A stretch of 64,000 nucleotides of DNA from a bacterium (GTDB taxonomy: Bacteria > Electryoneota > JAOADG01), in NCBI GenBank assembly GCA_963681965.1, contig OY820579.1:3264001-3328000 (forward strand), in the 5' to 3' direction. Both the position numbers and the translations under genes were made by a program. Under the pieces are notes generated by a model, which was not told the DNA's origin, ran no database searches, and saw only the letters and a list, made by a program, of their open reading frames with translations. Position 1 is the first letter of the stretch. Every line of letters starts with the position of its first letter. Shown here piece after piece: positions 53,966 to 54,619 of this stretch.

Positions 53966-54013
53966 AGACCCAGAAGATCGTTCTTTTGAAGTAGTGCCGA
54001 TCTCCGAATCGGC
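53966..54013 (+). repeat. Orphan direct-repeat copy of the 3' end of the LVIVD gene plus adjoining hairpin
   Basis: AGACCCAGAAGATCGTTCTTTTGAAGTAGTGCCGATCTCCGAATCGGC matches 56107-56154 at 46/48 nt and encodes [12 protein letters not shown]. Confidence 0.85.
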
Positions 54014-54619
54014 ATATTTTTTCCGTAGGGGCGTATGGCATACGCCCTTTCTGTTATCTTTTCTTCTTGTGTCCTGTAGTAGGGGCGGGCTCCCATGCCC
54101 GCCCGTTCGTGTATCCTGATTTGTCATTGCGAGGAATGCGCCGTACGGCGTATGTGGCAACCTACTATTTTTTCTGTTTATTCTTTTTGGTAGGGGCGGT
54201 TCGCGAACCGCCCGCCATCTTATATATCTTGATTTGTCGTTGCGAGGAATGCGCCGTACGGCGCGTGACGTGGCAATCTATTTTTTTTTGTAGCCGCAGG
54301 CTTTAGCCTGCGATTTTCTTATTCTTGAATCTTTGTATCCTTTATCCTGAAGTAGGGGCGGGTCCCCGCGCCCGCCCGGTCTGGTGATTTTTTTTGGTAG
54401 CGGCGGACTTTAGTCCGCGTATTGTTTTATTAAAATGATTTTACAAGAATGGCGGACTGAAGTCCGCCGCTACCGAATGAAAAAAAGATTGCCTCAGCCA
54501 CTGCAGGGCTTCGCAATGACAAATCAACAAAATGGGTGTTGGATAATGGGTGGTAGGTGGTGGGAAAAGATAAAGAAAATGATTCAAGACCGGGCGGGCG
54601 CGGGGACCCGCCCCTACTA
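53991..54619. repeat. Mosaic REP-like hairpin array F
   Basis: About 12 hairpins of about 7 types, starting at 53991, 54025, 54079, 54123, 54190, 54236, 54290, 54352 and 54397 (+ orientation) and at 54451, 54487 and 54592 (- orientation). Confidence 0.9.

Follow-up and report, generated by a model that had tools for sequence, protein, structure and literature searches.

A mixed cluster of GTAG-tagged REP hairpins between ligA and an LVIVD-repeat gene in a REP-crowded bacterial genome

Why are a dozen hairpins with several different stems packed into about 630 bp of a single intergenic spacer? The question is raised by positions 53991–54619 of a 64,000-nt stretch of an Electryoneota chromosome (contig OY820579.1, positions 3,264,001 to 3,328,000; hereafter the window, in whose numbering all coordinates are given unless marked as genome positions). 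The array sits in the spacer 53933–54749 between two divergent genes, ligA and a gene for an LVIVD-repeat protein. An earlier sequence-only reading recognized GTAG-tagged repetitive extragenic palindromes (REPs) in it, of the type linked to REP-associated tyrosine transposases (RAYTs, also called TnpA-REP), and suggested that variable hairpins on a constant linker invert the layout of a CRISPR array. They might then form a catalogue, sink, decoy or record of the ends of many HUH elements, or a platform for recombination. We find that the genome is crowded with REPs and has about 150 clusters of them, and that the array belongs among these and is not a special archive: 136 of the 150 clusters are mixed, and therefore none is special. 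The stretch is very probably a mixed REP cluster related, if more loosely organized, to the bacterial interspersed mosaic elements (BIMEs) of E. coli, and assembled from one GTAG-tagged superfamily that fills this genome and its phylum. The result is mostly a clarification, in that the apparent catalogue is an ordinary, if extreme, REP cluster, as are the other dense arrays of the genome.

A REP-crowded genome

Scanning for perfect stems of at least 7 bp preceded by GTAG identified nine hairpins at 53991–54617, seven on the plus strand and two on the minus strand. Repeat families were defined by hairpin scans, a k-mer census being too noisy for that purpose. The units are 22–26 nt long, with perfect stems of 7–9 bp and loops of 2–8 nt. 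Three hundred dinucleotide shuffles yielded a mean of 0.33 such hairpins and a maximum of 3, and the combined count of GTAG and CTAC, 11 in the array, averaged 2.3 in shuffles. Three bulged elements of a second repeat family bring the total to twelve units, so that the earlier count of about twelve hairpins in 630 bp holds and all the stems it quoted are present. The units are irregularly spaced, and the linkers between them differ in sequence and length except for a short 9-nt motif, TCTTGTATC.

The same scan of the host genome (4.24 Mb, single contig) detected 757 hairpins in at least 12 stem classes of 7 to 80 copies each. In the main tagged classes GTAG lies on exactly one side of most copies (for example, 77/83, 77/82 and 53/58). 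The GTCGGAAT class is exceptional, with 51 of 110 copies untagged; the tag is also absent from several repeated hairpin families. Joining hairpins at a distance of 150 nt gives 408 groups, of which 258 are singletons and 150 are clusters, and the largest cluster contains 19 hairpins. More than one class is present in the 136 mixed clusters, and three or more classes in 20 of the 21 clusters that hold at least five hairpins. Every hairpin type of the array also occurs dispersed, a third or so of all copies being singletons (258/757), and the classes are scattered across the whole chromosome in many unrelated spacers. Tandem amplification accounts for several clusters, which repeat with a fixed period of 99, 165 or 321 bp. 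REPs as a class are abundant and lie mostly outside genes; the copy number here agrees, the array itself is intergenic, and there is at least one in-frame intragenic case inside a RAYT gene (RAYT 4, below).

For the 79 clusters of at least three hairpins (357 hairpins), the numbers of distinct classes per cluster sum to 263, against 289.8 (standard deviation 5.3) after label shuffling, and none of 2000 shuffles gave a value as low. Adjacent hairpins belong to the same class in 14.0% of pairs, compared with 9.4% under shuffling. The array has six distinct 7-nt stem labels among its nine hairpins, and random draws from the genome pool have 7.0 (standard deviation 1.1). The diversity of clusters is thus a little lower than chance predicts. 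Local duplication should have this effect, whereas the reverse would be seen in a collection that avoids repeats. Neighbouring hairpins face the same direction in 218 pairs and are inverted in 131. Certain combinations recur: CGGCGGAC followed by CCGCAGGC occurs 16 times, 15 of them at 9–24 nt, and either GGGCGTAT or GGGCGAAT comes exactly 25 nt after GTCGGAAT, five times each. The recurrence of such modules shows that composite units are copied as blocks.

The superfamily extends through the phylum. In 40 sampled genomes of the same phylum, the pattern GTAG-GGGCG...CGCCC was detected in 30, with up to ~300 matches per genome against 0–5 for a reversed-pattern control, and the stems differ from relative to relative. 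RAYT family matches (E up to 1e-5) were found in 37 of the 40, at 1–19 per genome; the three genomes that lack one have 0, 2 and 1 pattern matches. The array itself is not conserved at this site. Upstream of ligA, the spacer of a same-genus genome is 140 bp long, lacks REPs and adjoins a different gene; in a same-family genome there is a small mixed cluster with other stems, and in a third genome there is no REP cluster. The arrays are therefore labile and lineage-specific, and the system is old in the phylum. The multiplicity of RAYT matches across the phylum, up to 19 in one genome, is unlike the description of RAYTs as typically single-copy (PMC5581495).

Shared flanks and the RAYT genes

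No RAYT gene lies in the window, as the sequence-only reading had observed. A search with Pfam Y1_Tnp (PF01797) and the NCBIfam model for REP-associated tyrosine transposases (NF047646, cut-off 80 bits) revealed four RAYT-like genes elsewhere in the genome, each flanked by a REP class (Table 1). An H-x-H motif and a Y-D-H/R stretch are seen in the RAYT alignment and in the open reading frames (ORFs). With the window's own record left out of the scan, the nearest RAYT relatives are 31–49% identical and come from other phyla. Matching the genes to their flanking hairpins, a check proposed with the original observation, supplied partners for part of the array: because the RAYT-flanking classes match, units 2, 3, 8 and 12 belong to classes with a visible cognate, and units 1, 5, 7, 9 and 10 do not. 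RAYT 4 (genome C1:345517–346362; L007 913–1758) contains an in-frame insert between the H-x-H (HUH) motif and the tyrosine region. The insert contains four GGGAGGGC hairpins ~84 bp apart, spanning three full repeat periods, and represents a REP array within a REP transposase gene.

Besides the 5' tag, the classes share a 3' tail. The sequence-only reading had noticed a related TTCTTGTATCTT-type tail across units of the array, and this relationship extends genome-wide: with up to one mismatch tolerated, TCTTGTATC is present within 30 nt downstream of 190 of the 757 hairpins, ~70 times the ~0.3% expected per search window. It follows 48/79 hairpins of the GTCAGAAC class, 33/59 of GTCGGAAT, 18/37 of CCGCAGGC, 16/45 of GGGCGGGC and 7/8 of GGGGGCAT, among others, and starts at a fixed offset, 2–4 nt past the stem, in at least eight stem classes. 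In the array, a degenerate tail, TCGTGTATC, follows unit 3. The motif also lies upstream (within 40 nt) of 68 hairpins, and in 36 of these, which span 11 stem classes, it ends exactly 5 nt before GTAG. Given the registers on both sides, many linkers have the order stem, 2–3 nt, motif, T-run, motif, 5 nt and GTAG. The 15 nt on either side of hairpins across the genome are 42–43% T. On the tagged strand, a CT dinucleotide occurs within 8 nt downstream of 376/757 hairpins and upstream of 354/757, whereas the count for the opposite strand is 85/757. A C/A-rich motif (TTTTCCCACCACCTACCAC and variants; 54545–54570 in the window) follows the tails of several REP classes genome-wide, the array's own version, TTTTCCCACCACCTACCACCC, recurring behind other REPs; its opposite strand is G-rich, with runs of G2–3.

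These flanks can be read against the enzymology of studied systems. In E. coli and S. maltophilia, TnpA-REP cleaves REPs in single-stranded form at a CT that lies either 5' or 3' of the element, and GTAG takes part in recognition; in one system it participates in the choice of cleavage site, like the guides of IS200/IS605 (PMC8266576). The shared linker most likely reflects common descent together with a cleavage and target motif read through the GTAG tag, the latter part being inferred. A unit consists of a 5' single-stranded GTAG tag, a class-specific GC-rich stem-loop and, often, the tail TCTTGTATC 2–4 nt further on. Such units are probably non-autonomous elements of RAYT enzymes (HUH Y1 proteins) encoded elsewhere in the genome. 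If the tag, identical in all classes, selects the cleavage site as in the studied RAYT systems, a common flanking cleavage and target motif would be expected, and a single-hairpin element with one guide should have the same motif on both flanks. Each inserted unit would then bring a new landing site, beside which any class could pile up. Seeding of this kind would lead to head-to-tail mixed arrays, matching the predominance of same-direction neighbours. Clusters are subsequently reshaped by tandem amplification and by the gain or loss of units between repeats of the motif. Segmental duplication or gene conversion acts on them too, and is shown by the near-identical twin of this array. We infer that insertion beside resident units shapes the cluster, and no record or decoy function is needed.

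A stricter version of this idea, in which arrays seed themselves because the 9-nt motif is the cleavage and insertion site common to all stem classes via the GTAG guide, is tentative and, on balance, doubtful. If true, only four RAYT paralogs would serve a dozen or more classes, each able to join any array. This would give a mechanistic reason why clusters are nearly always mixed and mostly head-to-tail, and it would be the first rule, at the level of sequence, for where REPs insert outside Proteobacteria. The choice of insertion site by REPs and the reasons for their clustering are described as still open (PMC8266576). A flank motif in fixed register on both sides of the hairpin offers a concrete, testable guess at the cleavage and target site. 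Workers on REP/RAYT systems may also find it of interest that this lineage combines at least 12 stem classes with four RAYT-like genes, and that a relative can have as many as 19 RAYT matches.

Several points weigh against reading the stretch as a RAYT-mobilized REP cluster. The link between the tail motif and cleavage or target choice is putative. The motif is present on only 25% of hairpins, and a nearby CT on 50%. RAYT 2 and RAYT 3 score below the NCBIfam cut-off, and RAYT 4 may be inactive owing to its in-frame REP insert. None of the four RAYT genes is flanked by the abundant classes GGGCGGTT, CGGCGGAC, CCGCAGGC or TGCCGATC, so at least four classes have no neighbouring RAYT among those checked. 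Nine relatives have a RAYT match and no GGGCG-pattern match, although that pattern covers one stem group only. A location between divergent promoters is atypical, REPs usually lying downstream of genes (PMC3733652). In addition, the extra unit in the paralogous locus P2 (below) can equally be read as a deletion in the copy P0 between motif repeats.

Array history, known systems and rival explanations

The array has been reshaped by segmental duplication or gene conversion. Most of it, together with the adjoining leader and the start of the LVIVD gene, forms a tract (Table 1) whose twin is found at genome 2.33 Mb, upstream of another LVIVD gene, a paralog. The five differences between the two copies are all transitions, and two of them break a stem pair in the other copy without compensation. 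Past 54893 the identity of the paralogs falls to about 80–90%. On the left, the tract stops in the T-run that precedes unit 2, a REP boundary at which the other copy has a different REP. Two older paralogs, P2 (3.33 Mb) and P3 (4.23 Mb), keep the block 54024–54214 (units 2–5) at 86–89% as well as the last hairpin with the leader, and the middle of the array is different in each. A further paralog, P4, keeps the leader and not the array. P2 has one extra unit with copies of the tail motif at both bounds. Because P2 and P3 share the ends and differ in the middle, units were gained or lost inside the array and not at the leader end; the ordered, polarised accumulation that a recording array would display, proposed as a check, is contradicted by these copies. 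A possible compensatory stem change in place, between unit 12 and the P2 unit with the same flanks and two paired positions swapped, is ambiguous given the extra unit of P2. Three paralogous copies of one array make the gain and loss of units directly readable.

Related arrays bracket the LVIVD gene at 56236–56349 and 57493–57658. Downstream of the gene, copies of units 1–2 (98% over 100 nt) precede a copy of 54351–54619 (97–98%) that is inverted and has been split by an insertion sequence (IS), an arrangement that suggests inversion or duplication between REP modules around the gene. The proposed recombination platform survives to the extent that recombination acts on arrays: the 876-bp twin has an edge at a REP boundary, and an inverted module lies beyond the LVIVD gene.

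The array fits a known kind, the GTAG REPs, and differs from previous examples in degree: in mixing, head-to-tail neighbours, a cross-class flank motif and the number of RAYT paralogs. Di Nocera, De Gregorio and Rocco (2013) described 24 GTAG families in 8 phyla, several per genome, whose sub-families differ by complementary stem changes (PMC3733652). As in that superfamily, which includes the SMAG elements of Stenotrophomonas, the units here are 20–26 nt palindromes with short loops, stems of 7–10 bp and GTAG left unpaired on one end. As there, families coexist, dimers are head-head or head-tail, some dimers combine different families, and the composition of large clusters varies; in the survey such clusters are often reiterated in tandem (PMC3733652). 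Mixing is more pervasive here, with nearly all clusters mixed as compared with ~10% hybrid dimers in S. maltophilia, and the 9-nt cross-class tail at a fixed offset stands against only 3-bp motifs opposite the tag, mentioned for two families in that survey (PMC3733652). Same-orientation neighbours also predominate in the present genome, which encodes several RAYT paralogs.

The mosaic BIMEs of E. coli are likewise clusters of REP variants on short linkers (Ton-Hoang et al. 2012, PMC3333891), and E. coli TnpA-REP, a Y1 HUH enzyme, cleaves single-stranded REPs at a CT to either side and needs, or makes use of, GTAG (Corneloup et al. 2021, PMC8266576), which recalls the enrichment of CT on both sides here. 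BIMEs are defined by alternating orientation and defined linkers, in contrast to an array in which seven of nine hairpins point the same way at irregular spacing, so that it falls outside the definition. Whereas E. coli has one tnpA-REP gene, there are four RAYT-like genes here and more in some relatives, and most stems are perfect here but bulged in E. coli. BIMEs of the E. coli type bind IHF, gyrase or DNA polymerase I. REPINs (REP doublets forming hairpins) of P. fluorescens are inverted pairs that fold into one hairpin (Bertels and Rainey 2011, PMC3116915), and two pairs in the array resemble them: units 9 and 10 have 31-nt arms, 87% complementary, around a 33-nt spacer and qualify as a REPIN, and units 8 and 12 have 32-nt arms, 100% complementary, 204 nt apart and qualify loosely. 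The array as a whole does not, since most of its units are single, point the same way and belong to different classes, and the clusters of this genome are made of recurrent heterologous modules. RAYT genes flanked by their own REP class are another point in common with P. fluorescens (PMC3116915). Nunvar, Licha and Schneider (2013) defined REP classes by RAYT proximity and tied their abundance to the cognate gene, with diversification ongoing; they distinguished 22 and 13 classes in Pseudomonas and Stenotrophomonas over many strains, compared with at least 12 in the single genome studied here (PMC3686654). With at least 12 classes and only four RAYT-like genes, several abundant classes have no visible cognate.

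That shortfall of RAYT genes relative to stem classes is among the observations that would suit a dedicated catalogue, sink, decoy or record of hairpin ends, together with the gathering of many stem classes in one place and the 5' tag and 3' tail common to them. This explanation is nevertheless largely refuted and must be considered extremely unlikely. Cluster diversity is below that of shuffled labels and the array equals random draws; clusters are mixed as a rule, and each type is found dispersed as well; the paralogous copies lack polarity, and the array was copied wholesale with its gene. Neither an Rfam family nor an array-specific adjoining gene marks it. The resemblance to an inverted CRISPR fails in the same way: the linkers vary in length and sequence and share the 9-nt motif only, the hairpins are high-copy rather than unique, and growth is not one-ended, so the array lies outside that definition. 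The sequence-only reading had named findings that would speak against it, namely descent of all types from one ancestral REP, or their dispersal as singletons with no shared linker or ordered accumulation. Common ancestry, dispersed singletons and a lack of ordered accumulation are largely what we find, and the shared linker alone stands. Nor are the hairpins likely to be plain intrinsic terminators or RNA stability elements, immobile and multiplied by local duplication only. The GC-rich stems followed by T-rich tails, the T content of the flanks and five terminator-like calls would agree with such a role, but the array lies between divergent genes, where there is nothing to terminate. One-sided GTAG, hundreds of dispersed near-identical copies and RAYTs with inverted cognate flanks are REP marks, the classes are dispersed across the entire chromosome, and the three relatives without a RAYT have almost no pattern matches; a purely terminator-like origin is therefore very unlikely.

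Retention for a regulatory purpose is somewhat less remote but still improbable. Here the array would be kept for the adjacent LVIVD promoter of sigma-54 type, or would insulate ligA, acting as a bending or protein-binding region or as a terminator-like stack. The argument for it draws on the 99.4% identity of array, leader and first 140 bp of the gene while the paralog bodies are only 80–90% alike, on the retention of the block 54024–54214 and the last hairpin 5' of two further paralogs, on the −24/−12-like motif of the leader and the presence of rpoN in the genome, and on terminator-like sites, of which the array region has 5 against 1.5 in shuffles. A recent gene-conversion tract explains the near-identity equally well, however, and paralog P4 has the leader without the array, whose middle varies freely between paralogs. 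A same-genus relative does without REPs upstream of ligA, and identical units populate many unrelated spacers. The array may influence the divergent promoters of ligA and of the LVIVD gene.

Feature coordinates, neighbouring genes and the second repeat family

Table 1. Coordinates of the array units, adjoining features and RAYT-like genes (positions in the window unless marked genome).
Feature	Position	Strand	Remarks
ligA (NAD-dependent DNA ligase), left neighbour	51856..53932	-	transcribed away from array; start codon 53932
REP unit 1	53991..54014	+	GTAG + stem TGCCGAT, loop 6; low-copy class, 3 perfect genome copies
Near-identical tract	54018..54893	.	units 2–12, leader, first 140 bp of LVIVD gene; 99.4%, 876 bp
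REP unit 2	54025..54047	+	GTAG + GGGCGTAT-GGC-ATACGCCC; class flanking RAYT 3
REP unit 3	54079..54104	+	GTAG + GGGCGGGC, loop 6; long-loop class flanking RAYT 4
Bulged second-family element	54123..54165	.	GTCATTGCGAGG, inner hairpin, GTGGCAAC, then CTAC
REP unit 5	54190..54213	+	GTAG + GGGCGGTTCGCGAACCGCCC; 71 exact copies in genome
Bulged element, second copy	54236..54281	.	GTCGTTGCGAGG...GTGGCAATCTAT
REP unit 7	54290..54312	+	GTAG + CCGCAGGC-TT-AGCCTGCG
REP unit 8	54352..54377	+	GTAG + GGGCGGGT, long loop
Units 9 (+) and 10 (-)	54397..54473	.	REPIN-like inverted pair of CGGCGGAC REPs
Unit 11	54487..54520	.	inverted partial copy of bulged GTCATTGCGA element
REP unit 12	54545..54617	-	GGGCGGGT class, with own-strand tail and C/A-rich motif TTTTCCCACCACCTACCACCC
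Leader	54642..54749	+	conserved 5' of all five LVIVD paralogs; starts with -24/-12-like motif TGGCAGGAATTTCGCT
LVIVD-repeat / choice-of-anchor B gene, right neighbour	54750..55424	+	ATG 54750
RAYT 1	genome 529684-530088		94.3 bits, above cut-off 80; flanking GTCAGAAC REPs
RAYT 2	genome 526681-527085		78.9 bits; flanking GTCGGAAT REPs, here GTAT-tagged
RAYT 3	genome 1138340-1138759		67.4 bits; flanked by inverted pair of GGGCGTATGGCAATACGCCC (GGGCGTAT class)
RAYT 4	genome ~345.5-346.4 kb		two pieces, 41.5 + 27.8 bits; flanking GGGAGGGC and GGGCGGGC long-loop REPs

A search of 53000–55500 against Rfam (E up to 1) returned only weak microRNA-precursor and SorY matches, far under the gathering scores; they lie on the inverted REP pair and were taken as chance matches. 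Five public runs from two studies contain the stretch, none of them listed as an RNA run, and contigs from four runs are broken at REPs, with none spanning the array.

The left neighbour scores 733.9 bits to NCBIfam LigA. Just 5' of its start, TTGTATCTTA is found both in this genome (53933–53975) and in the same-genus relative (L094 ~1400–1428). It resembles the REP tail motif, and the REP tail may imitate a native promoter or leader signal or have arisen from one. To the right, the LVIVD gene is a 224-aa ORF, with homology to its paralogs running ~700 bp further (to ~56160) in other frames; the region 54750–56160 is either frameshifted, or its internal 126-bp repeats are mis-assembled. The leader of ~110 nt is also present 5' of four paralogs, at genome 2.33, 3.33, 3.52 and 4.23 Mb, and holds a small hairpin, TTGGATC...GATCC. 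Its motif TGGCAGGAATTTCGCT is putatively of sigma-54 type, and the five LVIVD paralogs may form a sigma-54 regulon of secreted beta-propeller proteins. A sigma-70 promoter scan of the spacer gave 0 sites against 1.4 in shuffles, although the promoter type of the host may differ.

The bulged elements form a second repeat family, with ~227 pattern matches genome-wide against ~6 expected. The ATTGCGAGG...GTGGCAA units quoted by the sequence-only reading are real and correspond to the two bulged elements and the inverted partial copy of Table 1. They open with GTC-N-TTGCGA(GG) and close with GTGGCAA-(C/T)-CT, and the hairpin between these is variable. Across the genome, the outer arms GTC-N-TTGCGA ... 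GGCAA-Y-CT are conserved and the inner hairpins, of 10–45 nt, are highly variable; the family has no Rfam match. The two bulged copies of the array are 77% identical over 77 nt, preceding tail included, and the first, read on the minus strand, is a GTAG-tagged long hairpin facing unit 3. Second-family elements are joined to the REP tail in 70 of the 227 cases, and one copy also lies 5' of ligA in a same-family genome.

The insertion sequence that splits the inverted module is 1063 bp long with 25-bp inverted ends and is present at 56429–57491 of the window and at genome C1 ~1544103 and 3767878–3768941. Its 215-aa transposase has weak matches to DDE enzymes of the Mutator and IS66 types. For one of the three copies only the left junction was read; the two with a right end read show a 7-bp duplication, CATTGCG. 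All three lie inside a bulged GTCATTGCG... element, at the same element position, so that this insertion sequence looks as if it targets the bulged repeat.

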